Assembly: GCA_050084515.1 (NCBI GenBank)
Contig: CM114271.1
Coordinates: 37,944,001-38,008,000, forward strand
Direction: 5' to 3'
Length of the DNA stretch: 64,000 bases
Origin: Blasia pusilla
Lineage: Eukaryota
Shown here: positions 13,540 through 54,455 of the stretch, piece by piece
Numbering within the stretch: the first letter of the stretch is position 1
Layout: every line of letters begins with the position of its first letter
The notes under the pieces: model-generated
The model's input: only the letters and a program-made list of their open reading frames with translations
Databases searched by the model: none
Told to the model about the DNA's origin: nothing
Program-made: the position numbers and the translations under genes

Positions 13540-15010
13540 CCGCATCCCTCCCACATTCCATCTATCCATCAACTCATTCTCCATCCCCACTCCATCCATT
13601 CGTTCTTCTCCCTCTAAAATCATCCATGAACCCCATCCTTCAATTCATTCCATCCCCCATCTATTTCTGCACTCCTTCTTTGTCCATCTATCCATGCATC
13701 CCATCTTACATCTATCATGTAGGTCTGCCAAAACATATCTTGGGCAAGATTTGAACTTGCATCATCAGGCCGATAGTTGAGTCTTCTACCACTAGCCCAC
13801 ACACTATTGTACGTACGTGTGCAAAAAATACAAAATTGTCATGTCTTGTAGGATAGATTCACGAGATCTAATAGAGCGCCTTTGAGGATATAGGAGCAAG
13901 GCCCCACGAGGTCGAGGATAACCAACAATGGCCACGGATAACCTTAGAGAGTAGGTTTTTCCTTAGTTTCGGCTCATTTGGAACCATATTGAGAAACTTA
14001 CTATTTTATGAGAGATTGTCAGAGAGTCACTTGATTTATTTGCAGATATTTTGGTATTTATCGTTTCAATGTTTGGATGCCATGAGTTAGCATGGGATCG
14101 TATGTGTTTGTGTATATGTTCAATGACAACGACGTATGTTATGTCATGATATGTATGCGCACAGCAAAATACATATAGAAATATTTTTTTTCCTTTTTGC
14201 ATATTTTTACTTTTTAAAACTCATATTTGTATTATTCTTTTTCAAAAATAATTCCCATATTCATATTATTTTATTTTTAAGTCTTTAAGGCTTAAAATCC
14301 ATACATAGAATAATAAATAAGTGATTTTAAAATATTAGATAATCTACGATAATAGTAAACTCATTGATATAATCCAATATGATAGTTTATTAGATCATAT
14401 AAAGTCTGAAAAGAATTTAATGATTACAAAAGCTTATCATTGGAGTTTTTTTTTAGAAAACTTTTCTTGTATTAAATAAAAAAATTTATTCAATCATTAG
14501 TCTGTTGCTGGATGGATATTTCTCAATTCTAAAATTTCAATTATTTTTGAAATAAAATAATAAAAATATGATTTTTTAAAATTAAAAAATTAAACAGTTA
14601 AAAAGATATTTCTATACGTATTAAATTTTTTTGCTCATGTACATACATTCATGTGTGGACTAGAGGTAGAAGACTCCACTACAAGTCTAATGGTGCAAGT
14701 TTAATTCTTGCCCAAGATATATTTTGGCACATCAAGATGATGGATGTACGGTGGGTCACATGGATGGATGGACGGAGACGGAGTTCATAAATAGATGGGG
14801 GATGGAATGCATGGATGGATGGTGTTAATAGATGGAGTTTGGAGGGAAAAGAATGGATAGATGGAATTGACGGATGGGATTAATGGATGAAGAGTGGATG
14901 GAGAAGGAGTTGATGGAGAGATGGGGTGAAAGGATAGAGTAATAATGGAAAGACATAATTGATGGACGGATGGAAGGTGGAAGGTGGAATGGATCCGGAT
15001 AGAGGGTGCA
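13540..15010. mobile_element. Non-autonomous long-TIR (foldback/MULE-like) element with AT-rich core
   Basis: TCCATC-rich 13540-13815 is the approximate reverse complement of GATGGA-rich 14640-15010, including a shared ~90-bp tRNA-like segment. No TSD found; ends uncertain. Confidence 0.5.
13837..14166 (+). mobile_element. 330-bp solo A-B terminal unit of the DNMT/PHD retroelement family
   Basis: Starts TGTCATGTCT, with CGAGATCTA at offset 25 as in 17024; ends ATGTATGCGCACAGCA; perfect 4-bp TSD AAAT. Confidence 0.8.
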
Positions 15011-16288
15011 ACACGTGGAAAAAGTAACGGATGAAGGGTGTATTTGAGATTGGGACCTATAGTTACGTGGTTGGCGACGGATATAGATTCAGCAAGCAAA
15101 CATCCTTAGCATCCTTCTTATCTTACATTTTACTTTATGTTCGAGAGTCTGATTTACGTGTGTCCATTTGTCACAATGTTGGTGAGGTGCTGAACCTTGA
15201 TCAACCTAATGTATGGATGAAAGCATGTTCTCAAAGGGTTGAGTTATTTTGGAGAGTTATGCCCATTGCATTTGAGAACTTGGCGATTGCGTAACATTGG
15301 GATAATTTGAGGTATTCTATTATTTGGGGAGATGATTATCTAGCAATGATCTAGAGGTTCATCAGGGAGACTATGTCTACTTAAACAAACAACACCTACG
15401 TCGACATTGGATGTGACCAAAGGGTGCATCATCTTGAGAGAGTTTGATGCATTGCCATATGTTATTCTTTTAGTGGAGGGACACAAAGATATGTTTTGGA
15501 AGGATCATATGCATAACTATGTGGTATATCACATTCATAGTATTGATGGTATGGTTTATTTGAGCTTAGCATTAGTTCTTCCACACTTGCATTGTATATT
15601 GTGTGGTTTTGACCATGGTGCAACCACTATGCTAGTTTGTGATAGGTGTTCGAGAAGGTGGTATATGGCATGTTAACGCCATCTCCCACTAAGGTTCCTC
15701 CGAGACAATGGATGTGCCCTAGATGTACATAGAATAGAGACTAGGTGGCCATAGATCCAGACTTATATTTTTGAGATGGAGGAAAAGAAGGCGATTAACT
15801 ATGGGATCGTATGATCACCCAACCTTTTTTCTCTTAGCGTCTTAGAGATGTATCTCATGGTAGGTTGGGATAGATGGCTATGTGGAGTTAGAAGGACCTA
15901 ACCACCAAGTACGGGGCCAATTGGAGATATTTTGGTACATGATCCTATCGATGTCTAGATGCTATGAGTGAGTGTGGTATCTTGTATGTTTATATATTTT
16001 TGGTGATAATCATATGTTTTTTTGTAGTGATATGTATGCGACTAAGCGCACGATAACTATCACGTCTTTTAGGATAGATTGACGAGTTTTGGTAGAGTGC
16101 CTTCCAATATATTGGAGAAAAGTCTCAAGAGGTTAAGGATGACCTATTGATACTTTGGAAACTAGAGAAAACAAGTTTCCCTTTTTGTGGGTTTATTTGG
16201 AGCTATATATAGAAACCTCCTATTTTGGGAAAGTTATCGATAGGAATAGAATTGAATTTCCACTTTGAGACCCTTGACCCTCTACAGC

Positions 16289-16734
16289 CATAGTTGCACA
16301 GAAACAGACATGCCCATCCTTGGGACAGACATGTCTAGACAAGTTTGCACATGCCCATCGACATTCCCAACGAGTCCTCCGTCCAGGTTGTTTTTATATC
16401 TTGGTGGCAAGCACGGGCTTGGGATGTGAGAACGGGTGCGGGCTCATATTAAGGGAGATGGCTAGGAATCAGTCCGCACGTAGCCCGCGGAGGGCTAGCT
16501 AAGCTCGAGCATGCTCTCCGCGGGCCTATCAATCATAGGCTTAGGGCAAGCCGGTGCAAGCTACAAAATATTTGACAAGTGCTTAGATTGGCTGTAGGCT
16601 GGTCGATCCCAGGTGTATGTTGCGGGCGGTCTGGGCTCAGGTCTGGGCCACAAGAATCCGCACCCGCACAGACATGTCTATCCTAGGTACGGACATAAGT
16701 CCGCAGACTCGGGCTTTCTCTATGTGCAAGCTTG
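16289..16734. mobile_element. hAT-type MITE
   Basis: TIRs CATAGTTGCAC...GTGCAAGCTTG; 8-bp TSD TCTACAGC/CCTACATC; absent from the homologous site near 54025. Confidence 0.75.
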
Positions 16735-18736
16735 CCTACATCAAGTCAAGAGCCAAGGAAGTGACATGCAAGCATAAGATACCATGGAGAGAGCTTGGGA
16801 GAGGAAAGGGGCTATATCTTGCAAGAGGAGAGAACTTTGGAGCTAGTTCTCTCTCTGTTCACACTAGAGCTGTGGTCCTCCTTACCTTTTGAGTAATCCA
16901 AGGATATTATTAAGAGAGTGGGTTTGGTTTGACTTGAGAGAGATGATTTGTGTGAGAAACATTTTTGCATATTGTGAGACATTTGAGTTCTTATGATTGA
17001 ATTGGATATATTTTGGTACATGATGTCACATCTGAGTGGCCGATAGGCCGAGATCTATCGTGGATAGGGTGGAGCCAGCGGACTATCTTGAGTGTAACTT
17101 TGTCCCACGATGTCGGATGAGGTTGAGGATAGGTCCATTGTGTCAGGAACGTCGTTTCTGACAACTTTCATGTTGAGATCTTTCACAGCCGGGTGACTTG
17201 TTGACCAGGTCACCCACCCCTAGTAACCTGTGCGCGCAGGTTACCAAGGGAAGGGCTATTTTTAGGGGAAGAGCCTTTTGGCTCTTCCCAACCCTATATA
17301 AGAGAGGAAGATGGCTTTCCTAAGCCATCTTTCTCATGTTGGGCCGTTGGAGCACCTCCCTTGTATGTGTGTGAGCTAAGACTAGGGTGCTAGCGTCTGG
17401 ATTCCTTGATAACACAGGGTGGACGAGGCTCGATATACCGATGTAGATTGAGGAGTGGAGTTTTAGGCCGGATGTGCCGTTTTTACTACTCTTTATTTTT
17501 ACATGAGAAAGATGGCAGGGGGTTGGTGGGAATTCGTTGTTTGCAGGCAGGCCAGCGAGTTGCCTCGGTTGGGGAGCCCCTGGAGGCGTGTGTGTGACGT
17601 TTTTTGTGTCATTTTTCTCTTCGGAAGGCCGTGGGCGGAAGCGTTGTCCATTTTTCTCAGATTTTTTGGTGTGCGGATTGATGGGGGGATGGAGAGCGAG
17701 TGTAGTGTGGTGGGGCGTCGGGTGTACGCAAGTGAGGGTGTCGAGAGAGAAGGAAAGGGCAGGTTTGGGTCTTGCAGCCACCGGGGGGCTGTCAAGTAAA
17801 GGCGGCTAGGTTAGGTCGCGAAAGCTAGAGTTAGGTCACGGACGGGTTGGGCGCGGACGGCAGACGGGCTGGTCGCGGACGGCGAGGGGCGCGGACGCCG
17901 CCTCCCCCCCCGCCATTTAGTGCCCTTCCCCAAACTTGGGGAGGCCCATAGGGGTGCGGGCCGCGGTCCAAAGTTTTCCCCCTCTCCAACGTGGTAGGAA
18001 TGGATGCTGTTGTAGCGAACGTGGTAGGACGGACGAGGTCGGTCCGGCGAACACGGTGCGCATGGGCAACGTGCGGGCAGGGAGGATGTCGACGTGGTGG
18101 GTGACCGGCAAGTTGGACAGCGGGCGTGACATGATGTTTTTGGGGCGCGACAGGGCATTGCGAGAGTTTACGATGGAGGGGCAGTGTGCATGATGCCGAC
18201 GGGTTGTCCGCATCTGTTGACGGGAGGATCGACGTGTTGGTCGAGGGGAGTGTTATATGGCGGAGATTATCATATCATGTGGAGGAGTGCATATTGACGG
18301 TGCAAAGAAAGTTGAGGCGTGATCAGGTTACCCATTTGAGTCCCTTTTCCCGCACTTGTCGTGTGTGATTGAGAGTGCTGGGTATCAGGTAGTAGTTGGT
18401 GCTAGATGGTTGCAGTGATGGTGACGAGTGTAGATTCTTTTCATATGTAGCATGTTGGTGGATATACGGCGGTTGCCGAGTAGGGGTCGCGTGTATGATC
18501 CGAGAGAGTGTCGCTAGGTTAGGTGAGTCAGTTGGGAGGCTCATGGTGAGCCCGAGTGTTGAGCGTGCGTGAGGCCGGGTATGTCATTACGGGATGGACG
18601 TTAGCATAGGTGAGCTAGTGAGGCGTGTGGGAGACTCTCGGTGAGTCTAAGTGCTTGAGCGGGTGAGACAGGGTTTGTCATCACGGCGTTCTTCCAGGGT
18701 TCGGAAGAACGGGGTAGTGCGAGCAGTGGTAGTGGT

Positions 18737-20421
18737 GTGACACGGAGTCGAGTGAGATACCGAGGGGTTACTAGTGAGGAGCTCCCTCGACATCCATCCG
18801 TGACTGGATCGTCATTACTGGACACTGGGTCTGGTGACGAGATCACCAACAGAGACAATAGTACTTGGCAGGAGATGGACGACATGGGCCATCGGGGCAT
18901 GCGTCGTTTCTCGGGTGCAGTGGGCACCATCGACTTAGATGATTTCATCCAGGAGTTTGACACATGGTGCGACTTCCAAGAGATACGGACCCCGACACGG
19001 TTCAACCCTTTCATGGCATGGAAGGGGTTGTTCCAGCACTTGGAGGGTCCTCCGATGGATGACTACATGGAGTTTCGATCACTATATTCAGTAGAGATCG
19101 ATGCCTGGAGGATGTATTGGGCTCCAGGGTATGTGTCCACTAGTGATCACGAGGCATATGATGGGATTGTGAGAGGAGAGAGACACACACCATCAGCCCG
19201 GAGACTAGATGGAGAGGAGGGCAATGAGACAGCGATGTGGCGAGAGACCTCTGGTGGTAGAGGTCCCACCCGCCCGGCCCAAGACAAAGTGGAGTTCTTC
19301 CGGCGGTTGGGGAAGAGCTACCAGGGTATGCACGCACCGACAAGGTGAAGAGTCTACAGGATTTTCAGCGACGATCGGGTGAGAGTTTGAGAGAGGCCTT
19401 CACACGCATGAGGAGGCTGATCATGGCTACGTTTGGAGTGACTGAGGCGTAATCAGTCCAGTATTGGTACGGGCTTCTGGACCGAGAACTACGGAGGAGA
19501 GTCCGAGATGCGGTGCTCATTCACACAGCGAAGCCCACATTGAAGGTGGTCTTTGAGTTGTCTGAGCGTATTGAGCTCAACATGAGTGAGGAGCAGGTAG
19601 TGACCGCTGGATTTTCTCGGGAGTCGACGGGTCCACGAGCGGTGGTGACCCCACAGGTGCCACAGCAAGCACCAGTACCACGGGAGCGGGCCAGTGTGCC
19701 TAGAGAGCAGGGCAGGTACCGTGAGCCTATGAGGCAACGACCCGCACCTACATATGTTGCCCAGCAGGGACCGATGTGGTCTTGTTGGACGTGTGGAGGG
19801 GCCCATAGGCTGAGAGACTGCCCACAGCATGGGAGAGGACCACCAGTGCCTCCGATTGCGCAAGAGCCACAAAGGATGGCCCCACCACAGCACCAGTGTG
19901 ACCATTGCCATAGATATGGTCACACTAGGGATAGATGTTTTGACCTTCGCCGAGGGGCACGTCCAGAGGTAGGCCGAGGGCCTGGGGGCAGTCATCTTGG
20001 AGGAGGTTGGGGAGTTCTTCCTGGACGTGGTGGTAGAGGACCACCACCAGCCAGAGGAGATGGAGCAGGAGCACCAGAGCCGGCGCTTCTCTCACGCATT
20101 GATCAGTTGGAGCAGAGGATTGCTGCCATGACGATGATGCAGCTTAGGGAAGGCACGGAGTTGCAAGCACCTAGTGTGACTCCAGTCTCTACCTCTTACC
20201 CTGACCCCGGTGTGGATCTCTCCAATATGGGATTCATGTGTAGTGCAGCCCAGGTTGAGGCAGCTGCAGTGGTGACTCGGGGTGCTGCGAGAGGCATTGA
20301 GCCATCGAGAGGTGGAGTTGAGATTGACCCACCAGAGGGGACCGATGGGCGGCAGGCCAGGGTTCCACAGTCGTTCACATTGTCGGAGGCACTACACACA
20401 CCATCGATGGTGCCTCGATGA
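18737..20421 (+). pseudogene. gag with two CCHC zinc knuckles
   Basis: RFSGAVGTIDLDDFIQEFDTWC; QRRSGESLREAFTRMRRL; CWTCGGAHRLRDC (19783-19821); CDHCHRYGHTRDRC (19897-19938). Frameshift near 19340. Confidence 0.85.
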
Positions 20422-20799
20422 CCAGCGGTGCCTACAGTTCAGGCAACTACGTCGACGTCACGAGGAGTTGGAGTGACAACTCCTATGCCGGCTTGAGTGG
20501 AGTCAGTGTCGACTATAGTGTTGGAGGTGGCCACTAGAGTGAGTCAGACTCGCTATTTTCCGCCTTAGAGTTGGCGACGTTGGGAGTTGGACCGATTGAG
20601 GTGTTCGGTTGGCCGCCACGTTGTGTGAGCGTGAGAGAGATAGCGCTTCTTGTTCAGAGGTAGTTGAGGAGGTGGTGGACTTGCCCTCAGAGCCGGTGCT
20701 TGGGACGTTCCCCATAGAGTCATGGCATGCGGCGGCGGTGAAGTTGGTAGATATGCCAGCTCGACCGGCCATAGAGCGAGAAGTGGTGACACCTGGAGT

Positions 20800-21190
20800 A
20801 GTGTTACTGGATAACCGAGCTGGAGTATTTCGCTTGGTTAGTTTGACGGGGATAGTATACCACCCGCAGCGCGTCCTACTTGATTCGGGAGCGCAACCCT
20901 TGATGTTAGGGAAGGCGGCGTGTTTAGCGTTGGGATTACGGAAGGCCGACATTGAGCCTTGTCCCTTCTAGATAAATACCTCGATTGGGGGCGTATCACC
21001 CACTCAGTATATGACTCGACAGGAGATTGTTGTGAGAGTCAGCCAGAGCATGCGACGGATAGTGCTATGGTGCGCACACATGCGATTACGACACTAGCTG
21101 AGTCGTACAATGTGTTGGTGGGGAGAACAGTGTTATATCCCCTAGGATTCATCCTTGACTTCTGGGAGGAGACCGTTGCTTATCGGCCAT
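20800..21190 (+). pseudogene. Retropepsin aspartic protease domain
   Basis: RVLLDSGAQPLMLG (Asp codon 20882-20884) and downstream YNVLVGRTVL. Confidence 0.85.
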
Positions 21191-21590
21191 GATGGCGGTC
21201 GGTCAGATGAGTCAGTTACCTGTGCAGTTAGCGGGACAAGGTGGTCGATCACGAGGCGAGTCTGTGACCACGTTGGCGGCTTTCACAGGTAGTGTTAGCT
21301 GGCCAGGAGAGTTGTTGGAGGGGAACGCACATGCGAAGGATGTCCCATTAGCGGATAGTCCCACGGAGAGACAGGCCATGGCGGGTGTCTCTTCCCATGT
21401 TAGCGATGCCTCTTCACCATTATGGGGTACGACTCAAGAGCTACAGAGGATGGCCGACGACCTCGTGAGGCAGGCGTGGAGTCATGTTTTTATCCCAGAG
21501 CAGCGAGAGTCACGTGGCGATCGGGCTCTTGGAGTGGAGACGATGACCCCACTAGATACCACACCTGTTGTGTGGCAGTGCCCAGAGGAG

Positions 21591-22550
21591 GGTGTTAGGG
21601 TGTTAGATCTCTTTGGAGGGATTAGCACCGGATTGGCGGCCATATTGCAGGCGGGCATACGGGTGCATCAGTACCTTTATGTGGAGAGAGATGAGACCGC
21701 ACGGCGAGTATCATTACGTCACGTGGCGAGATTGGTCCAGAGGTATCCTGAGTTGTTGTCGGTATCTGCAGTATGGGGATACCAGCATACACTACCCGCC
21801 AACATATCTTTGGTGGGGGCGCAGGATCTGGATAGAGTTGGCACCATTCATTTGGTGATTGCTGGATGGCTATGTCAGGGTCATTCATCAGCTGGCCGAG
21901 GATTTGGATTGCAGGATCCGAGGTCATGGATGCTTTGGGAGATGCTCCGAGTAGTACGACACTTGCAGGAGAGTCAGATATGTTCTCCAGCGTACATTTT
22001 GGAGAACGTGCCATTGTTGGGAGATACTCGTGCACGTGTGATGACGAGTGTACATTAGGTGAGGTCGTGGTTGGGACCTGTTGTGTTGTTAGATGCAGCG
22101 AGAGTTGGGTCACGTGCCCATTGTCCACGACTGTGGTGGACGAACCTGATACCATCAGAGGTACTGAGTCGAGCCTACAATGGAGTCCACAGAGCACCAC
22201 ATCTCACAGTGGATGCTATTTTGGACTCAGGGCGTCGATCTCAGGTGGTGACACGTGATGATAGACCACCATTGGCCACGGGCAATAGGGTGGGGGAGTT
22301 GAGGGCAGCCTTACCTACGTTGGTGAGCTTCCTAGCATCCCATGCCTTTCGTTAGGGAGGGCCAGGCATGATTTGGGATGAGGTGACCGGAGTATTGGAG
22401 GAGCCTACAGCAGATGAGCGCGAGCGTGCCATGGGGTTCACTACCGGTACTACGGCGGTGCCAGGGATGACTGAGACATCACGGAGACAGGTGTTGGGGC
22501 AGGCGATGGACCTCAACTGTCTCACATGGATAGTCAGCCTAGGTATGGCT
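21591..22550 (+). pseudogene. DNMT3-like C5 cytosine DNA methyltransferase domain within pol
   Basis: Motif I VRVLDLFGGISTG; motif IV LVIAGWLCQGHS (normally PCQ); motif VI YILENV; motif VIII RAHCPRLWWTNL; motifs IX/X ERERAMGF...RRQVLGQAM. All in one frame with two internal TAG stops. Confidence 0.92.
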
Positions 22551-22844
22551 GAGCAGAGACGGATGTGAGTGTCATCCATGCCGCCACGTCCACAAGTTGG
22601 ACCACTGCCTACAGGGTCTGTACAGGCATTGGCTGGGGGCCAGATGAGGAGAGATAGGCACCCATGGACTTCCTGGGACGTCGTTCGAGCAGAGAGTGCG
22701 AAGGCGGCTAGAGTAGCACATGTTCATTTTTCGGATGTGGAGCATGGTGTAGGAGGTCAGAGTGGAGTGGTTGTTGCGGAAGTGGCTAGGGTTGCTACAT
22801 AGCAACCAAAGCCGGAGGTTGAGTCCTCTCCGAGTGAGGTCACG

Positions 22845-24290
22845 ATGGAGACTTGGGAGCCTATGATAGGTCTCAAGTTGATAGGAGGAGAGCGACGGCG
22901 AGTTCATAGGTTTCTGAGAGGGCATGTCAGTTGTTTTGCCTTCATTATGAGAGACTTGGGTACGCTGAAGGGTCCCGGGATACGGATTGAGTTGGCTAGT
23001 GATACGCCGATCTTTCGTCGACCCTACAAGTATTCTGATATGGAGCGAGCCTTGATTCAGAGAGGAGTCGGAGGACTTGTTGGAGGCAGGACTTGTGGAG
23101 TTATCACATGGGGAGTATGCATCCGCCAGATCATGCCGGCAAAGAAGGATATGTATGGCAATTGGACGGATAGGCGGATGTGTGGAGATTACCGTCCTAT
23201 CAACCGACACACGAGGTCAGATCGGTATGCCATGCCTACTCGAGGAGATCTTTGATGCGGTAGGGCATGCAAAGATCTTGATTTTTAGATCTTCGTCTTT
23301 GGCTATCATCAGCTTCCTATCAGGTTGGAGGACAGGAGAAGACGACGATTCAGGGGATAGATCGGTTCGGGAGAGATTGCTTTATCGATGGCGGTTCTTA
23401 CCATTTGGGTTGAAGAACGCGCTGCGGAGTTTCAGAGTGATGGATGGATAGGATTCTGGCTGGCTTGGATTTTTGTGCGATGTTACATAGATGATATTCT
23501 TATCTTGAGTTCCACGGTTGAGGAGCATGAGCGACACTTGGAGGAGGTGTTTCGGCGATTGCAGTTACATGGACTGAAGTTACATCCAGGCAAGTGCAGA
23601 TTCCTTTAGGAGCAGATTGAGTACTTGGGACACACCATATACCCGAGTGGGTTAGGCGTTCAATAGACGAAGGTAGAGGCTATTGCGCAGATTCCACGCC
23701 TTATAGATGTGAGTCGAGTCCGAGCATTTCTTGGATTGGCGAACTTCTATCGACGGTATGTCAAGGGTTTTAGTGCGATCGCAAAGTCTTTGACCTTGTT
23801 GACGAGACTTGATCAGGTGTGGTTGTGGGGAGATGATCAAGAACGAGCATTTCAGAGCTCAGGGCAGGTTGAGCGTCCTCACCCATTTTACTGAGAGACC
23901 GGTTCGGGTCGCCCATTCCAATTACATACGGATTGGAGCATGTTGGGTCTAGGAGCAGTGCTTACTCAGAGGGATGACGAGGAGAGGGAGTTCGTTGTGG
24001 CTTACGCGAGCCGATCGAACATCATTGCAGAGGCAAAGCAAAAACGGCCTACGAGGGAGAGTGCTTGGCTGCGGTGTGGGCCATGGCACATTTCAGGTGC
24101 TATTTATTCCGCAACCCTTTCACACTTATATCGATCATCAGCCATTGAGGTGGTTGATGGAGTCCGACAAGCTTACGGGAAAGCTTGCCGGGTGGGCTCT
24201 ATTATCTGCAGGAGTATGAGTTTGAGGTGGTTCATAGGCCAGGTCGGTTGAACCAAGATGCGGATGGGTTGAGTCGTAACCCATGTCCGA
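22845..24290 (+). pseudogene. Reverse transcriptase and RNase H (many frameshifts)
   Basis: PIFRRPYKYS; RRMCGDYRPIN; FLPFGLKNA; CYIDDILI (23481-23504); LKLHPGKC; LHTDWS..GLGAVLTQ; VAYASRS; DHQPL; DADGLSR. Confidence 0.92.
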
Positions 24291-24489
24291 GTCGAGAGAG
24301 GCGACCGAAGCTCGATGGCACGGAGAGAGTGATGAGGAGATGGTGCCGGTTGGCATGCATTTGCCTATCTTTGTTGGTTGACTATGGCGGGTCGACCCAC
24401 AAGTGATGACTCGTGGTGGGGTTGGATGATGAGTCTTTGGATCCGGAGGTCGGTGAGGAGGCGGTGGTGGTCGTGATATCCATGACGAT

Positions 24490-25920
24490 GTGGAGGTTGT
24501 GGAGTTCTTGCGCACTGGCGTCATAGCGAGCACAATGAGTGCTAGGGAGCGGGATCGGATCCTACAGAGAGCCAAGAGGTTCAAGTGGGAGGGGACTCAC
24601 ATTTTGCGGATATGGGGAGATGGTAGGATACGAGTGGTACCTCATCCTTCCCAGCAAGCACGTGTAGTGCGACATGCCCATGAGGAGTTGGGACATTTCG
24701 GAGTAAAGCGTATTTACGACTTACTCAGGTGTTCGATATTGGTGGCGCGGCATGCATACTGGGGTACAGAAGTTTGTGGCCAGATGTATGGTATGTGACA
24801 GAGTGCAAGCATCCTTCAATGCTCCCACTCCGCCGTTACATCCTTTGCCAATTATGGGTTTAGGCTATCGGTGGAGTTTAGACTTTGCGGGACCTTTGCC
24901 ATTGATAGGGCGTCATCATAGGTACGTGTTGGTCATGGTGGAGCATTTCTCCAAGTGGATAGAGTTGGTGGCACTACCAGACAAGGCGAGCAAGGGAACA
25001 GCTTATGCATTTCTAGATCGTGTGCTTAGTCACTTTGGTGCACCGGCGGAGGTGTTGACTGACCAAGGTACCGAGTCCAAGGGAGAGTTTCAGGCCTTGT
25101 GTGATCAGGCGCTGATAGATCACCGTACCACATCCAGGGATCATCCTGAGGCGGATGGGTTGGCGGAGAGAGTGGTACAGACGGTGAAGAGAGGATTGCG
25201 CAAGTATGGCTTGCAGCACGGACAGTTGAGGGAGTGGGACCTACAGTTGCCATGGTTGGCTATGGGTTATCGCTTTAGTCGGCAGGCATCCTTGGCTTCA
25301 TTTTCACCGTACTTTTTGCTCTTTGGGAGAGAGCCTGATTTACCTGCAGCGATTCGACGTGACATGACGGAGGTGTTAGATCTTGATGATCCAGATGTGT
25401 GGGTGCAAGCATGTTCTCAGAGGGCAGAAGTTTTTCGTAGAGTTATGCCTATGGCCTTTGAGAACTTAGCTATTGCCCAACATAGAGATACATTGAGGTA
25501 CGCGACCATTCGTGGAGGAGGTTATCGTCCAGGGATTAGGAGGTTTCATCCTGGAGATTACATGTATTTACAACAGGCGGCACCCACGACGCTAGATGTC
25601 ACTGCAAGGCGCACGATCCTACGTGTGCGCGAGGTATTACCGACCGGAGTCCTCATGTTGGAGGGACGGGATGGCATGGTTTGGAAGGATCATGTGCGCA
25701 ATTGTGCGCCATGTCATCTTTCGAACGTAGATGGGACAGTGGATCCGAGCTTGGCAGTGGTACCTGCAGGCTTGAGGTGTATGTTGTGCGGATCTGCGAG
25801 GGGTGCAGCCACCATGTTGGTATGTGATGGTTGTTCTCGAGGGTGGCATATGTCATGTCTGACCCCCCCCCTCTTGATGTGGTTCCCACGGGACGATGGA
25901 TGTGTTCGAGATGTGTATAG
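24490..25920 (+). pseudogene. DDE integrase with C-terminal PHD finger
   Basis: HAHEELGHFG..CMVC; SLDFAGP; LTDQG; GLAERVVQTVK; then CMLC-x10-CDGC..WHMSCLTPPL, continuing after a poly-C frameshift (25863-25871) as DVVPTGRWMCSRCV-stop (25918-25920). Confidence 0.92.
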
Positions 25921-27059
25921 GGTAGTAGGTCATGTCGAGAGATGTGATATTTTCTATATCGGAGTTGGGGGATCCAAGCGCCCGGCTAGGGGCGGTTGAG
26001 TGATCTCCATGTATATGTATGAGTTGATTTTTGTACATGTGTGGATCGACCCGTGTGTGGGGAAGATCGGTGTTGTGTGGTGTAGATGTGACCAGCGATG
26101 TATGTTGTGTAGCGATATGTATGCGCACGACAATGATCTTCTCGATGTCAAGATCTAAATGTCATGAATTAGTGTGGTATCTTATGTGTTCATGTGTGTA
26201 TTAGGTGACAAGGATATATGTTGTGTAGCGATGTGTATGTACATGACATCTACTAACTCGTCTTCATTAATCCATATTTCAATTCTTCTTGAATATTATG
26301 AAGATTTCAATGAACTTCTTCATAGGTTCAAATCTCACGAGAGCCACAGAGAGTGTTGTAACACAAGAGTACAATGTGACCTAAATCTCCCGTACTCAAT
26401 TCCTTTCAAGAGTTAACTTGAAGATCTCTTCTAGAATTAGTAACTTTGTCATTGAAGAAGTCCAGAAAACTCAAGGCCTAAGGCATTCATATCTACCCTT
26501 GCACATTCTTCCGCTTCAAGGATGCAGTCAAACCTTGTTAAAACAACCTACGTTTGCACCTAGTGACCTACAATCAAAGTTCTTCAACTTCTCTAAGGAG
26601 AATTGCACCCATAAAGAAATCTTCTTCTCCTCATGTTGTAGAATTGTTAGACTCTTTGGTGACACCAAGAAAGAACTACCACACTTTGAAGAAATATTCT
26701 TGGATTATATGACAAAAGCTTTGGTCCTTCCAAGGTGGTAGCACACATTTCACACTAAGTCAAGTATCATCTTTCCGATTTAGAAAGTTAATCAAGACCC
26801 CAGATAGACATGATCTTAAATACAAACTATTCTTAATCTTAACGATTCTTAGAGGTGTTTATGGCTTATGCTTATGTGTAGACCATATCAAAATACTTTT
26901 TTCCTTAAGAAATGATGTGAGAAGGCCAAATGCGTCATCCTAGCACCATGCTCTAGCTATACTAGTTAGCATGCTTGTGCTTGCGCACATAAAGAATTTT
27001 TTAATAATTTAGAAATATTTTTATTTCAGAATTTAAATATAGTTTCCACTTTCTTACAT

Positions 27060-27495: not shown

Positions 27496-27619
27496 TGCAT
27501 AGCTTGTGAAGGGAAGGGATTAATGATGCTACACACAAATTCAAACTTTTTTCCTGTTGCCCATAACATATGAAACATTTTCTTGCTGTCCAATTGCCAC
27601 GTGTCAATAGAAGGGCCTT

Positions 27620-48039: not shown

Positions 48040-49580
48040 ATCTTGAATTTTTCATCTTGTCCAACGTTCCAACCTTGAGCTGAAATTTCGCCCACATGAT
48101 CCCCAAGATGGATGTTCCACTCTTGCCAAGTTTCAAGCAAAATGGAGTTGTGAGCAAAACCTCATAAATTAACAAGTCCTTTTTTTACCCAAACCATCAC
48201 ACCTTCTATCGAATTAAGGTTTTTTCATTTTTCATCTTGTCCAACTTTCTAGTCTTGAGCTGAAATTTGGCCCACATGGTTCCCAAGGTGCATGTTCCAC
48301 TCTTGCCAAGCTTCAAGCAAAATGGAGTTGTGAGCAAAACCTCAAAAATTAACAAGTCCTTTTTTTACCCAAACCATCACACCTTCTATCAAAGTAAGGT
48401 TTCTTCATTTTTCATCTTGTCCAACTTTCCCATCTTGAGCTCCAAAATGGCTCACAGGGTCTCCAAGGTGCATGTTATACTCTTGCCAAGTTTGAAGAAA
48501 AATGGAGTTGGGACCACAAGCTCAAAAATTGGTAAGTCCTTTTTTGACCTGAACCATCACACCTTCCATAGAAATAAGGTTTTCTCATTTTTCATCTTAT
48601 CCACATTTCTCATCTTGAGCTGAAATGAGGCCCACATAGTCTCCAAGGTCCATCTAGTACTCTTGTTAGGTTTCAAGCAAAATGGAGTTGAGACCACAAG
48701 CTCAAAAAATTTTGAGTCTTTTCTTGACCCGAACCATCAAACTTTCCAAAGAAATAGGGTTTTTTCATTTTTCATCTTGTCCAACTGTCCCATCTTGAGC
48801 TGAAATTTGGTCCACATAGTCTCCAAGATGCAGCTAACCCTCTTGCCAAGTTTCAAGAAAAATACCATTGGGACCATAAGCTCAAAAATTGGTAAGTCCT
48901 TTTTTGACTCGAACCATCAAACCTTCTATCAAAATAAGATTTTTTTATTTTACATCTTGTCCAACTTCCCCACCTTGAGCTGAAATTTGGCCCACATTGT
49001 CCCTAAGGTGCATATTCAACTCTTGCCAAGTTTCAAGGAAAATTAAGTCGTGAGAAAAACCTCACAAATTATTAACTCCTTTTTTGACCTAAACCATCAA
49101 ACCTTGAATGAAAAGAAGGTCTTTTCATTTTTCATCTTGTCCAACTTTCCCATCTTGAGCTGAAATTCCGCCCATATGGTCCCCAAGGTACATCTACCCT
49201 CTTGCCAAGTTTCAAGAAAAATGGAGTTGTGAGCAAAACCTCACAAATTAATAACTCCCTTTTGGACCTAAACCATTAAACCTTGAATGAAAAGAAGATC
49301 TTTTCATTTTTCATGGTGTCCAAATTTTCCATCTTGAGTTGAAATTTTTCCCACATGGTCTCCAAGATGTATCTAGTAGTCCTACCAAGTTTCACCCAAA
49401 ACGGATTTGTGACCAAAACCTCAAAAATAGGTAAGTACGTTTTGGCCTCGAACCATTAAACCTCCAATGAAAAGGAGGTTTTTCATTTTTCACCATGTCC
49501 AACTTTCCCAAGTTGTTTTTGTAGCATTCTTGCAAAGTTTTGAGCAAAATGGAGTTGTGACCACGAGCTCAAAAATCATA
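48040..49580. repeat. 180-bp tandem repeat, about 8-9 copies
   Basis: TTTTCATCTTGTCCAAC recurs every ~180 bp from ~48049 to ~49490. Confidence 0.92.
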
Positions 49581-50046
49581 CTTACCAATTTGATTTTCAA
49601 TGTAAAAATCAATGCTTTATTAGGGTGAAGGTTATAAAAAGGAATGTCATAAAAATGACATTCTTACAATAGTCAACACAAAAAAATTTGCTACAACTAT
49701 ATACTAATCCATCTCACTAAACTCACTAATTACTCTTTTAGTCTAGGTCTATGGTTGGATCGGGTAGATTAAGATGTAAGCGGTAATTTGGCGACTCAAT
49801 AGTTCAAAGCCGGGTGGATCGGCGACAAGTTCCTATTGCAATTGTTTCATCATCGGAGGAAATGTATGAGCTATTCATGCCATGATTAATGGATTGAGAT
49901 TTTGGAACCATATATATGAAAACATCATTATCATTAGGCTCATCAACTAAGTCCACCGTTTCAACACTCAAAGATTGTGGAGGAGTATCCCGCACAGGTT
50001 CACTAGACTTGGTGGAATAATTCTGAACTCCTATTTGTGCAACAAT

Positions 50047-51605
50047 CTAAGGGTTGTAGGTTGTGTTAGGAGAAGTGCTAGGTAGATTGGATTGGCTTGA
50101 AGTCCTCTGTTGTTGCTCTTCCTCGTGTTCTCGAATCCAATGTTCCATTTTAGCATCATCTTCGTCTATTTTAGGCCCCTCGGAGTCAAAATTTTCAGTA
50201 TTGCCGATATGAGTATCCTCTCTCCCTTTGATGCCATGAATTCCACATATCACATCCACCTCCTCTAGGTCCTCATCTTGCAAGTCAAGGTTAACTTCAT
50301 GATTACCATTAAGGTTTCTTGCATGCAAGCTAGATTCACTGCCATCTTCTACTACCCGTCTAGCTTGTTCTTTTCCATCCCTTTCAAAAAGTAGTTTTTC
50401 ATGAAAGAGCAATTGTCTTGATTTCTGAGAAATACCCTTGTCTCCAAACCATGAGTTTGTGTAGATGTACACCAAATCTAGGGCAAACTCACTGGTCAAT
50501 TTATTCTTGTGCTTGTTGTGGATGAAACCATAACTACTCCAATTTCTCTCCACTAAACAAGATGAAACCACTTGTGCTAATATGGACTTAGCCACAGAGC
50601 GCAATGTTGGTACATCTTGACCGTGCATGCTCCACTAATCAAAGGGGCCAAATTAATCAACAACTTCCCTACCAAACTCATCCATAAATAGTTCCTGATA
50701 GTTCACAATGTTGCCAAACTCTCGCAAGCAAGTAGCCACATAAGAATTAGCCTCGGTGACATTGAGGCCATGCATCCTATTTGCATAAATTTTTAGATAT
50801 TATTTGAAATCTCTTATGCATTCAACATTTGAAGTGACGTCTTGGACACTATCAAGAAGATTTTAAGGGGCGAGAATGTAGCCTATTGCATGTAATTTGT
50901 TGTGGATAAGTGCCCACCGCCTAGAAATAATATCGACCATATCCGTAGCTCTAAACATTATGAAAAAATAACCGCGACGCCTCCCACCCACACCAGGCCA
51001 TGGAGTTATATGAAAAGAACGAGTCTCTTCTATTATCTAAAAAATATGGCAATAAATACGCCCCGTTATTACTTTATGACCATCACACTCTCTCAACAAA
51101 ATAATAGTTGGTTGAGCCGTAGAAAACAACTCCTCACCCTCAATCCAAAAATTAGGATTGGCATAGTAGTCTTAATCTCTCGTGCCTTCTCGTTTTGCCT
51201 TGCATCCCTACCATTGAAATAACCCCTAAAACCATTGGTGGCAACCATGGCATGGAACGCCTCCCTCAATTCTAAGATGCGTCCCAACATGATAATTTTT
51301 TTGGCAAAGCATGTGTTTGCAGGAAGCAAAAATTGTCTCTTCCTTGGATTGGTTTCCATGAATTTGGCCATCACCCAAGATGTAGTCTTCACAAATACTA
51401 CCATCTCACAAGCTTGTGCAAAAATCCTGTCCAACCAAGGCCATTTATCCCATTCTTTGTAGACTAGATCAAGAGAATGTGATACGCATCCACCCCAAAG
51501 AATATGAGGGAACTTTGCTTCGGTAAGTTTCCTTGATTCTCGCTCATTGCAAGCATTTTCCGTCACAAGTTGCAACACATTCTTTGGACCGATGCGCATG
51601 ATAGT
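50047..51605 (-). pseudogene. hAT transposase relic (DUF659-like region and C-terminal dimerisation domain), 5' part missing
   Basis: IGPKNVLQLVTENA; FPHILWGGCVSHSLDL; HGQDVPTLRSVAKSILAQVVSSCLVERNWSSYGFIHNKHKNKL. Confidence 0.88.
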
Positions 51606-51677
51606 CCTCTGGATTTACCTGTCGCCATTCGTCAAGATGTTGTTGAGGTGTTGAACCTCAATGACCCTAATGTATGG

Positions 51678-52975
51678 TGTGATACCCACAATTTTGTACT
51701 TTTAGAGATTTATACATTTTGATTCAAGGAATACAGATTCTATGAAGTGAAGATTGTACATATAAGATTGTTTTAGATATTATGTTTGTGAATTGGAAGA
51801 ATGAGTAATATTGAAATGGATCACAAAGCTCCTACGGCAAGGCAGAGAGGTGGAAAATCAAGGATTTGCCTTAGAGGAGATGGAAATGCAGTAACAAAGT
51901 CTAAAGACTAAGAGCGAAGCTTGGAAAAGACAACGAAGCCTTATTAAGAGCTTGTTAATGAAGTGCTTTGCTCGTGAACGAAGCATGATGAAGACAAAGA
52001 GGAAGAAGTACTTCGCTCTTCAGCAAAGCACGACGAATGAAGCACATGGAACAATAGCAAAGAATGCAGCAATTCATCCTTAGGAAGAGCTTCGTCCTCA
52101 AGGGAAGAAGAAGAAGTTTAGACTTCGCAGCGAAGCGAAACTAAGACTTGAAGTGATTTCAAGCGGCACACTGTAAGAATAGTTAAACTAGGAAGAGGCG
52201 CGACTTTTTGAACCAGATAGGAAGTTAGGACAGTTACGCCAAGTGGATTCATAGCGATCATAGGAAAAGATAAGAGAACCGTAGATTAAGGTAGTTACAA
52301 ACTCTCAATAGACACTAGATTCGTAAGAGACGCTTCAGATCTTTGGACCTACTACTACCTCGGAAGATATTTAAGAAGCATGAAAATAGCTATCATCATC
52401 ATTCTTTCACAAAGTCCTTATGCTGTAGGAATAGTCCGAGCAAGGGAGTAGTACCCTCTCGAGCTTGTATAACACTTTGAAGCTTACTCATTCTTGATGG
52501 AGTAGTAAAGCACTCATTTCTTCATTCTGATGTGCGATGCCTATGTTTGAGAATTTTTATTGGGTCTGCACAGTGAAGAGTGAATCAGGAGAACACTTCC
52601 ATCATTAGAATAATCAACAAGGAGTTTTAAGAAATTTTTTCGACAGAGAGTAGCCTACCTAGACGGATTTAGTTTTGAAAGTAGGAGAAGCCAGCTTCTT
52701 GTTGAGGTTTCTGTGAGGTTCTTTGATGTTGAGTAAAGATCTACCTGAGCGTGAATTCAATTCCATTGGAGAGAAGCGAGGAAAGAAATATTGGTACTAA
52801 TAGAGAGAAGAATACACTGATAAATGATTGAATCCGAATTGTAAACACTTAACTACAACTATTGCAAGATAAATGCCATCTTGAACTCTCTTTCTACATA
52901 ATCGTGATCCTCTTGGGGATCGAACTCATTAAATTACTGTAAAAAGATCAATTCTTAAACTTTTGATATATTACA
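51678..52975 (+). mobile_element. Solo LTR related to the Athila-like element
   Basis: TGTGATACCCAC...ATTACA with perfect TSD TATGG; colinear with, but diverged from, 3900-5129. Confidence 0.92.
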
Positions 52976-54237
52976 TATGGATGTGAGCGTGTTCTCAAAG
53001 GGCAGAATTCTTTCATAGAGTGATGTCCATGGCATTTGAGAACTTGGCGATATCTATTACATAGCGTCGGTACGTTCAAGTATGTGACTATTCGGGGAGG
53101 TGGTTATTGACCAACTATCCAAAGGTTTCATCAGGGAGATTGTGTCAACTTATAACAAACGGCACCTACGACATTGGATGTGATCAAGGCATATTATCTT
53201 GAGAGTGGATGATGTTTTGCCATCTGGAGGGACGCGATGGTATGATTTGGAAGAATCATGTGCGTAACTTTGCGACATATCACCTTTCTAACAATGATGA
53301 TACAGTTGATCTAAGCTTAACAATAGTTCTTGCAGGCTTGCACTATATGTTGTGTGGTTGTGCCCGTAGTGCAGCTACTATGCTAGTCTATGATGGATGT
53401 TCGAGAGGATGGCATATGGCATGTCTGACGCCACCTCTCACTAGAGTTCCTCGGGGACAATGAATATGCCTCAGATGTACATAGAGTAGGTAGTTATAGA
53501 TTTCGACTTGTGTCTACGATATGGATGACAAGAAGGCGACTAACAATGGGGCCACATGAATATCCAGAATTTTTGCTCTTAGCATCCTAGAGATGTATAT
53601 AATGATAGGGAAGGATACATGGCTATCTGGAGTTAGAGAGACCTAACCACCAAATAAGGGGGTAATTGGAGATATTTTGATACTTATCACCTCGATGTTT
53701 GGATACCATGAGTTAGCATGGGATCGTGTGTGTTTGTGTGTGCATTCAGTGATAGTGATGTATGTTGTGTAGCGTTATATGTGGCACAATAGTTGTCATA
53801 TATTTTAGGGTAGATCGACTAGATCTAGTAGAGCACCTTCTAGGATAATGGAGGAAAGCCTCAAGAGGTCGAGGGTGACCTGCTGGGGCTACAGATAACC
53901 TGAGAGAGGAGGTTTCCCCTTCGTTTCAGCTCATTGGGAGCCATACATAGAAACTTACTATTTCAAGTAAGTTTCCATTTTGAGCATAGTTTCCTTTCCA
54001 TTTTGGAAAGTTGCCTTTGACCCCCTATAGTAGATCAAGAGCCAAGGATGTGACTTGCGAGCATAGGTTACCGTGGAGAGGGCTTGGGAGAGGGAAGGGG
54101 ATATACCTAAAGAGAGAGAGCTTTGGAGCTCATTCTCTCTATGTTGAACCTCTTGGCATGAGGCGATGGAGCTATGGTCCTCCTTGCCTTGAGTATATAA
54201 CCCAAGCCTCTCATTAGGAGACTCGGTTAGGTTTGAC

Positions 54238-54300
<63 letters not shown>
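54238..54300. repeat. (GA)n microsatellite within the A2 repeat
   Basis: About 30 GA units; the homologous site near 16936 has only a few. Confidence 0.95.
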
Positions 54301-54304
<4 letters not shown>

Positions 54305-54455
54305 GTTGAGAATGTTAATTGATTTATTTGAGATATTTTGGTACTTATTGTCTTAATATTTGAATGCTATGAGCTAGCATGGGATCATGTGTGTTTTTAT
54401 GTGTATTCGGTGATAGCAATGTATGTTTTGTAGTGATGTGTAGGCGCACGTTAAG

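Follow-up and report, generated by a model that had tools for sequence, protein, structure and literature searches.

The closest described counterpart of the elements analysed here is KnitGypsy-Dnmt3 of the green alga Klebsormidium nitens, for which a figure legend reports 'the structure of repeats ... of a DIRS retrotransposon' together with a Gypsy domain composition (de Mendoza et al. 2018, PMC5890265, Fig. 4c legend), and the name 'Gypsy-DNMT3' has been used for streptophytes (bioRxiv 10.64898/2026.05.21.726589). Compared by that description rather than by K. nitens sequence, the two have in common A-coding-B-A-B repeats, a green-lineage host and a Gypsy-type Pol in which a Dnmt3-like C5 methyltransferase is embedded; the host here has a different, AT-rich genome. 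Neither a PHD finger (0 occurrences) nor a PBS, PPT, palindromic joint or target-site duplications (TSDs) come up in the main text of that paper, and its supplements may hold more (PMC5890265). PAT, Ngaro, VIPER and TOC elements share the order A1-internal-B1-A2-B2, and in them the enzyme genes are followed by the internal B1-A2 pair (PMC4157794). However, their enzyme is a tyrosine recombinase and their insertions lack a TSD, whereas the present family has a DDE integrase, TG..CA ends, a 4-bp TSD and a Ty3-like reverse transcriptase (RT); by analogy, we regard the likeness as convergent or as a shared logic of integration from joined cDNA. Self-priming is known from Tf1/sushi and the plant Tcn1 clade, which are described as having no tRNA PBS and a transcript start complementary to the sequence directly after U5 (PMC6317226). 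These elements, which we liken by features and not by phylogeny, have ordinary LTRs and chromodomains, whereas a permuted LTR and a PHD-bearing integrase are found here. In insertion sequences of the IS3 and IS30 families, DDE transposases of the rve type act on a circle junction, where a short spacer (2 bp in our family) separates the two element ends; this spacer is lost on insertion, which makes a short TSD. These insertion sequences are DNA transposons whose junction is made by circularisation, whereas here the junction would lie within a reverse-transcribed LTR and circularisation would create A|B.

The window, a 64,000-nucleotide stretch of the Blasia pusilla genome, contains one complete element, one solo copy and two truncated copies, all on the forward strand. 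An earlier note on this DNA overstated the novelty of their architecture, since the repeats of KnitGypsy-Dnmt3 had already been likened to those of DIRS (PMC5890265). The layout itself is not new; our data suggest that what is newly readable is the mechanism, because the PPT, self-primer and palindrome of the family suggest how a split-repeat layout is copied and inserted.

Judged by their sequence, the blocks belong to one Ty3/gypsy-type retrotransposon family with the order gag-PR-Dnmt3-like DNMT-RT-RH-DDE integrase-PHD, and the family is real. The complete element (17024-26132; 9109 bp, GC ~54%, TG..CA ends) is flanked by the perfect 4-bp TSD ATGA (17020-17023 and 26133-26136), and self-BLASTN found no direct repeat of at least 60 bp between its two ends; it has the form A-int-B without LTRs. 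Its A1 (17024-17500) begins with TGTCACATCT and is followed by gag in two frames (18659-20421, with two CCHC-type zinc knuckles within 19453-20421), an aspartic protease region with an LLDSGAQ motif (20600-21190), a C5 cytosine DNA methyltransferase domain (PF00145, 21585-22800, interrupted by in-frame stops), a frameshifted reverse transcriptase and RNase H (22803-24283), and an integrase with an H2C2 zinc domain, an rve DDE core and a C-terminal PHD finger (24535-25999), of which the ORF 24707-25999 is open. B (25996-26132) ends with ...ATGTATGCGCACGACA. The coding region is decayed, with several in-frame stops and frameshifts, but Pfam domains rve, Integrase_H2C2, PHD and DNA_methylase were recognised in ORFs of the window, and an intact relative of 2811 aa, P0158, is collinear with the element. 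Among solved structures, P0158 matches Ty3 Gag-Pol best (7q5b, E 1.4e-93); its DNMT portion matches DNMT3A/3B at ~3e-6, which makes the domain in the window Dnmt3-like by way of this relative, and its integrase matches PFV IN at 1.9e-17. Across 332 relatives the zinc and DDE-region columns of the integrase are invariant, and its closest named relative is from Coleochaete scutata (72%). The family has a very high copy number in the host species. The DNMT and PHD domains of 17024-26132 were absent from the earlier note.

The two truncated copies were said to end in pol-B1-NN-A2-B2, and the block coordinates, junctions and TSDs all check out. In copy 1, an integrase C-terminus/PHD remnant (15048-15732, equal to positions 8209-8897 of the complete element) precedes a PPT-like purine/G run AAGTACGGGGCC (15907-15918) that abuts B1 (15920-16055); after the spacer AC (16056-16057), A2 (16058-17000) begins with TATCACG, or TATCACGTCT, with G>A at base 2, and its extra length relative to the other A copies is probably due to an internal insertion around 16240-16746. 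The complete element inserted into B2 of this copy, separating its first 23 nt (17001-17023, the last four being the duplicated target ATGA) from the remainder (26137-26248, after the second ATGA at 26133-26136), which ends with ...TACATGACA. In copy 2, pol remnants lie within 51612-53489 as two pieces, 51612-51677 and 52975-53489, separated by a solo-LTR-like insert of another gypsy family (~51795-52944); the stretch 52978-53489 and 15048-15732 of copy 1 match positions 8209-8902 of the complete element. A PPT-like run AAATAAGGGGG (53652-53662) abuts B1 (53665-53791), followed by the spacer GT (53792-53793), A2 (53794-54325, starting with TGTCATATAT and carrying a (GA)n microsatellite near its 3' end) and B2 (54326-54453), with an A2/B2 boundary good to ~3 nt. 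The junctions B1-AC-A2 (16055/16058) and B1-GT-A2 (53791/53794) are thus confirmed, as are the complete A-gag-pol-B and the solo A-B with perfect 4-bp TSDs. The solo unit (13837-14166; A ~13837-14031, starting with TGTCATGTCT, B ~14032-14166) has the TSD AAAT (13833-13836 and 14167-14170). It is nested inside an inverted-repeat element.

Self-BLASTN aligned A blocks 13830-14006 and 53786-53963 (78%) and B blocks 14037-14144 and 53663-53770 (81%), 53665-53772 and 54326-54433 (B1 and B2 of copy 2, 81%), and 15920-16040 and 54326-54446 (75%), indicating that the A/B repeats are homologous and do not resemble each other by chance. B ends lie at 14166, 16055, 26132, 26248, 53791 and 54453, of which only 26132 has the exact terminal sequence ...ATGTATGCGCACGACA, the others being decayed variants. 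A weak point is that the A of the complete element has little in common with the three older A copies beyond the first ~10 nt, the remaining similarity being faint; we class it as A by where it lies and by its terminal motif. B-AC-A joints with an A of the 17024 type are present in reads of the host species. A motif at 'offset 25' in all four A copies, to which the earlier note had pointed, is too weak to carry weight.

The split direct repeats on a DDE-integrase gag-pol element recur in metagenome relatives and in the host species and are real and family-wide. Four complete A1-int-B1-NN-A2-B2 relatives have 4-bp TSDs, two of them perfect (L043, ATCA/ATCA; L078, CATT/CATT; L035, GCAT/ACAT; L072, ATTA/ACTA), and of 54 loci that extend 1200 bp or more past the integrase, 12 have a B1/B2 pair. 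In the ~52%-identity group, B-NN-TGTCATG occurs in 14 loci (11 distinct), and the spacer is always purine-pyrimidine in the 11 distinct loci (GC 5, GT 3, AC 2, AT 1). Roughly every second copy is without A2-B2: in the L035 group this holds for 11 of 22 distinct loci, in the close group for 7 of 9, and in the window for the complete copy. Distant GC-rich relatives conserve the palindromic joint, yet no second B was found within the 1.8-8 kb of downstream sequence of L053, L055, L062 and L067. Unit or solo forms with perfect TSDs are represented by the window (ATGA, AAAT), L004 (TACA) and L026 (CCAA); L030 is without a TSD. DNA contigs from two studies and RNA reads of the host species show joints of 17498-17501 to 25994-26006, and these coincide exactly with the previously predicted A end and B start, confirming 17500 as the end of A1 and the start of B in the complete element. 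RNA reads also run past 26132 into GT and TGTCACG... (44 and 81 reads), and in X3 contigs 26133 and 17024 are linked across a single letter (B-AC-A). Both the A|B and B-AC-A joints in the contigs belong to the window's own subfamily.

Three signals of the family escaped the earlier note: a PPT, a self-priming site and a palindromic joint. A tRNA-type PBS is absent, as had been noted before. In the complete element, a TATA box (17295-17301) is followed after 23 nt by a segment (17324-17339) that is the perfect 16-nt reverse complement of the putative PBS directly after A1 (17501-17516). More generally, the RNA is predicted to start ~25-30 nt downstream of the TATA box in A, and its first 10-16 nt are complementary to the sequence directly after A1, which, on this pairing, we take to be a Tf1-type self-priming site. 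The complement measures 12 nt in the L002/L006 subfamily and 10-15 nt in the L035 group; the pairing covaries in three subfamilies, with a compensatory change on both sides in L043. A complement of at least 10 nt is present at the A end in six of the eight A copies that precede internal sequence (the exceptions are L004 and L030), while 16 of 19 A copies that precede B2 have none, two are explained by an inverted A copy, and one has only a distant 9-mer. RNA coverage in the host species does not fall off upstream of the predicted start (16920-17303), where it is as deep as on the downstream side; reads derived from A2 would account for it, and the start site remains predicted. In L035, L072, L078, L006, L002 and all window copies, B1 is immediately preceded by a G run; in the complete element it is TAGGGGCGG (25987-25995), at the end of pol and abutting B. 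Of the tRNA/PPT-independent replication proposed earlier, the lack of a tRNA PBS therefore stands, whereas PPT-independence does not, the tract lying before B1 and not before A2 where it had been sought; nor is the element unprimed, given the self-priming PBS after A1. The B-NN-A joint is a conserved palindrome, GACA-GC-TGTC, in which the TG of A faces the CA of B across the 2-bp spacer, and the A2|B2 joint is, to the nucleotide, the last base before the PBS and the first base after the PPT.

We consider it likely that split-repeat copies are permuted proviruses, derived from a cDNA with a B-NN-A LTR whose ends are joined and which is opened at the internal palindrome and integrated. With a self-primer PBS and a G-run PPT, standard retroviral reverse transcription should yield exactly such an LTR. 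The replication-competent genomic form would be A1-PBS-internal-PPT-B1-NN-A2-B2 within a 4-bp target duplication, and the cDNA would be a conventional molecule in which U3 begins at B and U5 ends at the last base of A. Its termini might be joined by ligation to a two-LTR circle, by an end-to-end jump of RT or by end joining after strand transfer, and A2|B2 would be the U5 end joined to the U3 start. Integrase would then cut the palindrome of the 5' LTR in a circular or end-joined substrate, much as DDE transposases of the IS3/IS30 type work on a circle junction, and insert those TG/CA ends, not the PBS/PPT-defined LTR termini, and the outcome would be a circularly permuted provirus with the split direct repeat layout. 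We infer both the joining and the cutting from the sequence, and feasibility is supported by reports of retroviral integrases cutting 2-LTR circles at their palindromic LTR-LTR junction, where facing CA..TG ends give a product usable for integration (PMC1180852, PMC1905944, PMC4372172). Among retroviruses such cleavage is a minor or salvage pathway, acting on a palindrome that is itself the end-to-end joint; in our family it would be an obligatory step on a templated palindrome. The CA-NN-TG junction had been read as that of a circle; because the PBS follows A1 and the PPT precedes B1, it is not where cDNA ends meet but lies within the LTR, and the end-to-end-like joint is A2|B2. A-int-B and solo A-B copies could come from one-LTR circles, from cutting of both palindromes, or from later B1xB2 and A1xA2 recombination; the last origin, proposed before, is compatible with the data since TSDs are retained. 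Copies such as 17024-26132 have no 3' R and should be dead ends. With A2-B2 missing from so many copies, however, A-int-B could itself be the chief direct product, a point against this model.

If integrase can cut either palindrome of a two-LTR form, the mirror image, A-B-NN-A-int-B, would be expected as often as the observed form, yet none was seen among ~9 loci with an informative 5' end, so that the permutation model needs an unexplained 5'-LTR preference or the sample is too small. The distant GC-rich relatives in which no second B was found, the even RNA depth on both sides of the predicted start, and the A1 copies L004 and L030 without a complement likewise weigh against the model. No special rule is required if A1-int-B1-NN-A2-B2 is the sole primary product, copied whole from a long RNA, with a longer cDNA trimmed by integrase at TG/CA, A2|B2 a relic of one ancestral end joining, and the unit and solo forms arising later by B1xB2 and A1xA2 recombination. 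RNA reads spanning both B-NN-A and A|B, which imply that transcripts contain A2-B2, and the perfect TSDs of unit and solo forms, as recombination predicts, agree with this. We nevertheless judge it unlikely: when the self-primer acts at the PBS and the first jump lands in R of A2, B2 would never be copied under the established retroviral scheme, from which we could derive no pathway to the B2 right end without an end-to-end join. Moreover, the B repeats are only ~110-180 bp long and ~300-900 bp apart, and recombinants making up at least half of the copies seem high, though possible for old copies. In caulimoviruses, the same template jumps without strand displacement naturally produce a one-LTR open circle. 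A pararetrovirus-like cycle drawing on this, in which the unit A-int-B replicates from an extrachromosomal one-LTR circle giving terminally redundant RNA, palindrome integration is a side reaction, and split-repeat copies are more-than-unit-length insertions able to restart the cycle, would accommodate TSD-bearing unit forms as common as split-repeat forms and the caulimovirus polyprotein 8r0s as second-best solved match for the RT. It appears very improbable in view of the full integrase and PHD finger kept under conservation (332 relatives), the very high copy number in the host species, the clean TSDs on split-repeat copies and a gag with zinc knuckles as the only such gene, with no movement-protein or pararetrovirus capsid-type gene in the element.

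Chance could have placed a short A-B element or solo LTR beside a truncated gypsy end, or ordinary LTR elements could have lost the B part of the 5' LTR; both split-repeat copies in the window are 5'-truncated, which makes their own TSDs uncheckable. We give this hardly any weight, as 13 distinct metagenome loci and the host species share the joint with its 2-bp purine-pyrimidine spacer, the PBS lies directly after A1 in six of eight cases, and the TSDs of relatives enclose the whole A1...B2 unit rather than A2-B2; chance adjacency is contradicted by joint and TSD placement alike. A database family suggested before as a possible match, Troyka, was set aside as irrelevant, being described with 3-bp TSDs, CG..CG ends and animal hosts, against 4-bp TSDs and TG..CA here. 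The identical A1...B1-A2-B2 layout (PMC4157794) would also suit a DIRS/PAT/Ngaro-type element mobilised by tyrosine recombinase, but domain content and TSDs contradict that identity and make it extremely unlikely: domain searches found no tyrosine recombinase domain and an rve DDE integrase instead, insertions have 4-bp TSDs and TG..CA ends, and the RT is nearest to Ty3.

Every coordinate, block, spacer and target-site duplication (TSD) listed in the earlier note proved correct on re-checking. The complete element (17024-26132; 9109 bp, GC ~54%) starts with TGTCAC, ends with CGACA and has ATGA on either side, and self-BLASTN found no terminal direct repeat within it. The coding order on its plus strand is gag (two zinc knuckles), aspartic protease, C5 DNA methyltransferase (PF00145, matched in the ORF at 21159-22058), reverse transcriptase (RT) with RNase H, and integrase, the last with H2C2 and rve domains and, at its C-terminus, a PHD finger. 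P0158, an intact relative of 2811 aa, is collinear with this element, and several in-frame stops and frameshifts break the window copy; PF00145 is likewise matched in P0158 and in another relative protein, P0011. The complete element has inserted in the B block of an older, AT-rich copy, 23 nt from the start of that block; of this older copy the last ~700 bp of pol, B1, an AC spacer, a long A2 and a split B2 remain (15048-17023 and 26137-26248). The GC-rich unit element (A-internal-B) thus sits inside the B2 of a copy of its own family (17001-17023 / 26137-26248), a position that may reflect either chance or targeting, perhaps via the PHD finger. The second truncated copy (51612-54453) has the same tail apart from the spacer (pol-B1-GT-A2-B2), and a piece from another family that resembles a solo LTR interrupts this copy. 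At 13837-14166 stands a solo A-B flanked by a perfect duplication of AAAT. Similarity between the A block of the complete element and the older A copies is marginal.

Among longer proteins, 332 relatives of the integrase-PHD ORF were found at E≤0.001, the closest named one being a Coleochaete scutata transcript (72%); others belong to Haematococcus, Pleodorina, Volvox, Tetrabaena and Chromochloris, and several of the relatives contain PF00145. Of the solved structures, P0158 matches Ty3 Gag-Pol best (E 1.4e-93), and its methyltransferase part is closest to DNMT3A/3B (~3e-6). When this part was used as the query for a named Klebsormidium protein, 2 and 3 matches were returned, none of them named; the ESM Atlas gave a lead (0.88) to a streptophyte DNA-methylase cluster. 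In some lineages the methyltransferase domain lies between RNase H and the integrase and not before the RT (the relative protein P0054, which additionally carries a G-patch, and the metagenome loci L053, 2906-3949, and L067, 3626-4618), so that the position of the captured domain differs within the clade. Scanning metagenome contigs with an alignment of the integrase-PHD relatives yielded 80 loci (L numbers) with integrase identities of 43-79%, to none of which the 5' untranslated region (17024-18700) matched by BLASTN.

Four of these loci contain complete A1-internal-B1-NN-A2-B2 elements, NN being a 2-bp spacer, with 4-bp duplications outside A1 and B2 (L043, ATCA/ATCA; L078, CATT/CATT; L035, GCAT/ACAT; L072, ATTA/ACTA). 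A complete element of this family normally has the split layout; the earlier note's interpretation holds to this extent family-wide, although it missed the polypurine tract (PPT) and the self-primer described below. Unit forms are flanked by TACA/TACA (L004), CCAA/CCAA (L026) and GGTT/TGTT (L002), and by no TSD in L030, and the perfect 4-bp TSDs across the window and the relatives are ATGA, AAAT, ATCA, CATT, TACA and CCAA. After setting aside 26 of the 80 loci with less than 1200 bp following the integrase, a simple BLAST criterion detected a B1/B2 pair in 12 of the remaining 54. A B-end motif search in 35 loci of the ~52% group found B-NN-TGTCATG in 14 (11 distinct places) and B followed by unrelated flank in 11, with no match in 10; in the close (~75%) group, B-NN-A occurs at two distinct places (L006/L007 and L014/L015) and B followed directly by flank at seven. 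One of these places holds a rearranged copy, in which an inverted A copy follows A2 in place of B2 (L014, 3361-3878; same place as L015). In L071 a second, distant element (10754-13363; ~40% integrase identity) begins right after the B end of the first and has its own B1 (12705-12866), GT spacer, A2 and B2 (13200-13363).

The spacer is always purine-pyrimidine (GC 5, GT 3, AC 2, AT 1, with AC and GT in the window), and these counts point to a 10-bp palindrome, GACA-GC-TGTC, as the ancestral joint. We infer that the spacer variants are the transitions expected of deamination at the palindrome's CAG/CTG sites. The palindrome is conserved as CACGACA-GC-TGTCATG in the distant GC-rich loci L053, L055, L062 and L067, where it stands 0.7-3 kb past the integrase; no second B was found there within the 1.8-8 kb of downstream sequence examined.

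In retroviral reverse transcription, U5 ends one base before the primer-binding site (PBS) and U3 begins one base after the PPT. The earlier note had reported no PPT before A2; a G run stands directly before B1 and is absent before B2. It reads ...CTGGGGGGGG in L035/L072/L078 and ...CTAGGGGGGCG in L006; the old copies of the window have AAGTACGGGGCC and AAATAAGGGGG, and its complete element has TAGGGGCGG. The note had likewise found no tRNA PBS; a priming site is present directly after A1, as the complement of a putative self-primer. The A block contains a TATA box, and the stretch beginning ~25-30 nt past it is the reverse complement of the sequence right after A1. In the complete window element, 17324-17339 pairs perfectly with 17501-17516 over 16 nt, the pairing beginning 23 nt after TATATAA (17295-17301). 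The corresponding pairs are AGTTCTTTGAGT with ACTCAAAGAACT in the L002/L006 subfamily and AGTTTTTCTAGA(ATT) with (AAT)TCTAGAAAAACT in the L035 group; the three pairs differ in sequence and keep complementarity and position, and in L043 both the primer and the PBS carry a change. In a control comparison, 6 of the 8 A copies that precede internal sequence had a complement of 10 nt or more at the A end, whereas 16 of the 19 A copies preceding B2 had none; two of the three exceptions are due to the inverted A copy of L014/L015, and the third is only a 9-mer, 650 nt away. A 10-nt complement in L080 was too weak to count as a PBS. A short hairpin, AGATGGC..GCCATCT (17311-17334), overlaps the predicted RNA start and so places two instances of the PBS-sense motif close to the primer segment.

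At the A2-B2 joint, the last base before the PBS is joined to the first base after the PPT (...TTCAAT followed by ATACATGAG in L072/L078, ...CATTTTC followed by AGTTGTGG in L006). The same joint was found in the host species, Blasia pusilla, when two DNA-contig runs from two studies (X1 and X3) and two RNA-seq runs, all with the same species label, were mapped to 15000-26500 with a likeness of 90%. In these runs the family proved very abundant. Joints of 17498-17501 to 25994-26006 occur in many X1 contigs, four X3 contigs and RNA reads, and coincide exactly with the A end inferred from primer pairing and with the B start just after the G run; the joint sides are 20-27 nt long for many in X1 and reach 73 nt in RNA and 48 nt in X3. 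RNA reads running past 26132 continue with GT followed by TGTCACGTCC... (44 and 81 reads), and in X3 contigs 26133 is joined to 17024, a single letter separating the two. The window's own subfamily is thus also present in the genome as B-AC-A and as A joined to B, and both joints are transcribed. The first mates are mostly of the minus strand, so the transcripts would be sense if the libraries were of the usual stranded kind.

Given the observed layout, TSDs, PPT position, covarying primer complement, conserved palindrome and DNA and RNA joints, we consider the best explanation to be that the LTR of the cDNA is B-NN-A and that the integrated copy is a permutation opened at the palindrome. By the standard scheme, these PBS and PPT positions should yield (B-NN-A)-PBS-internal-PPT-(B-NN-A), an ordinary two-LTR molecule. 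Its RNA would start ~25-30 nt downstream of the TATA box in A, and its termini would be the base that opens B and the base that closes A; joining them would give A2-B2, that is, the U5 end against the U3 start. The integrase would then cut the palindrome of the 5' LTR in the joined molecule and insert it at a target cut staggered by 4 bp, one spacer being lost and the TG of A and the CA of B being left as the integrated ends. The same substrate could give A-internal-B, from a one-LTR circle or by use of one end of each palindrome, and A-B as the complementary piece. These two forms could equally be later B1xB2 and A1xA2 recombination products, as the earlier note had proposed. Since R would stand at both RNA ends in the split form only, A-internal-B copies, 17024-26132 among them, should be non-functional from the moment of insertion. 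Against the permuted-cDNA scheme counts the lack of any mirror form (A-B-NN-A-internal-B) among about nine loci with an informative 5' end, which leaves exclusive use of the 5' LTR palindrome unexplained; on short contigs the mirror form is indistinguishable because its local joints all equal those of the observed form. Junction-motif matches upstream of pol in L077 were judged to be chance, as they lie inside an open frame with 2-3 mismatches; L076 has one at 4027. Extending the permuted-cDNA scheme, we think it possible, if somewhat short of probable, that this green-lineage clade never integrates via its reverse-transcribed DNA termini: the integrase would act in the manner of an IS3/IS30-type transposase, its att site being the templated palindrome GACA-GC-TGTC within the LTR, end-joining of the cDNA (a two-LTR circle or equivalent) would be obligatory, a functional provirus would in every case be the cDNA in circularly permuted form, and the split repeats of tyrosine-recombinase elements would embody the same logic reached independently.

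Split direct repeats have been regarded as a mark of tyrosine-recombinase retroelements. The DIRS order (PAT/Ngaro/VIPER) shares them with the present family; however, those elements use a tyrosine recombinase and insert without a TSD, whereas only an rve integrase and clear TSDs are found here. The order PR-RT-RH-INT, the Ty3-like RT and the TG..CA termini are those of Ty3/gypsy elements, the 4-bp TSD falls within their range of 4-5 bp, and if the LTR is B-NN-A, the PPT lies directly before U3 and the PBS directly after U5; in place of two identical terminal LTRs, complete relatives show A1...B1-NN-A2-B2. With a Dnmt3-type C5 methyltransferase within the Pol polyprotein and DIRS-like repeats (A-coding-B-A-B), the family fits a known kind, Gypsy-DNMT3 / KnitGypsy-Dnmt3. 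In KnitGypsy-Dnmt3 of Klebsormidium nitens, a Dnmt3 is embedded in a gypsy Pol (de Mendoza et al. 2018, PMC5890265), and the legend of Fig. 4c equates its repeat structure with that of a DIRS element; our comparison, by domain content and repeat layout, follows this published description. It is the sole published mention of such repeats on a gypsy element, the only paper found by full-text search for 'KnitGypsy', and the parts of it consulted give no mechanism. A 2026 preprint names 'Gypsy-DNMT3' of streptophytes, with no discussion of repeats in the parts consulted. The architecture is therefore already in print once. As far as our searches go, the mechanistic reading is new and testable, and the literature searched describes neither a PBS nor a PPT nor a palindromic att site in split-repeat integrase elements.

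Self-priming in Tf1/sushi and Tcn1 has the same arrangement as the primer complement here, at the predicted RNA 5' end, as far as the consulted part of PMC6317226 describes it; Tf1/sushi differs in LTR layout and in accessory domain, a PHD finger and no chromodomain having been found here. Gypsy-7a_cRei of Chlamydomonas has a PHD finger and 'LTR subparts', and the account consulted describes it with ordinary left and right LTRs. Troyka, suggested in the earlier note as possibly covering this architecture, was rejected as unrelated, given its 3-bp TSD and CG..CG termini in the portion of PMC12440569 consulted, against 4 bp and TG..CA here. Circle-junction transposition of IS3/IS30 and, in the accounts consulted, integrase cleavage of retroviral 2-LTR junctions would resemble the proposed scheme in logic, not by descent.

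With a primer site, PPT, TATA box and palindromic end-to-end site readable in the sequence, the scheme is concrete and testable: it specifies the RNA start and the cDNA ends, and tells the templated joint from the one formed by joining. If true, circular or end-joined cDNA would be a required intermediate and not a dead end, and retroviral-type integrases would be functionally linked to bacterial DDE transposases that use circle junctions. An LTR finder that looks for a pair of identical terminal repeats, with a tRNA PBS and with a PPT ahead of the 3' repeat, will overlook this very abundant family or annotate it wrongly.

With hAT remnants, gypsy elements and a GC content of 44%, the window looks like plant-type nuclear DNA. 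At 3900-12982 lies a conventional Ty3/gypsy LTR retrotransposon, with RVT_1 and integrase domains between LTRs of 1230 bp (3900-5129 and 11757-12982) that are 97.3% identical; the solo-LTR-like piece within the pol remnant of the second truncated copy (51795-52944) is a ~78% copy of this family's LTR. The solo A-B lies in the left arm of an inverted-repeat element (13591-14865), of which 13591-13828 and 14168-14253 pair with 14865-14539 at 80-84%. A ladder of self-matches marks a tandem array of roughly 8 copies with a period of ~180 bp (48047-49510), and hAT transposase remnants with the hAT dimerisation domain and DUF659 (50047-51614, minus strand) lie directly upstream of the second truncated copy. 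A (GA)n microsatellite (54220-54300) lies at or near the A2-B2 joint of that copy, as does a (TG)n tract in L043 (~11630-11650), the two copies being unrelated.
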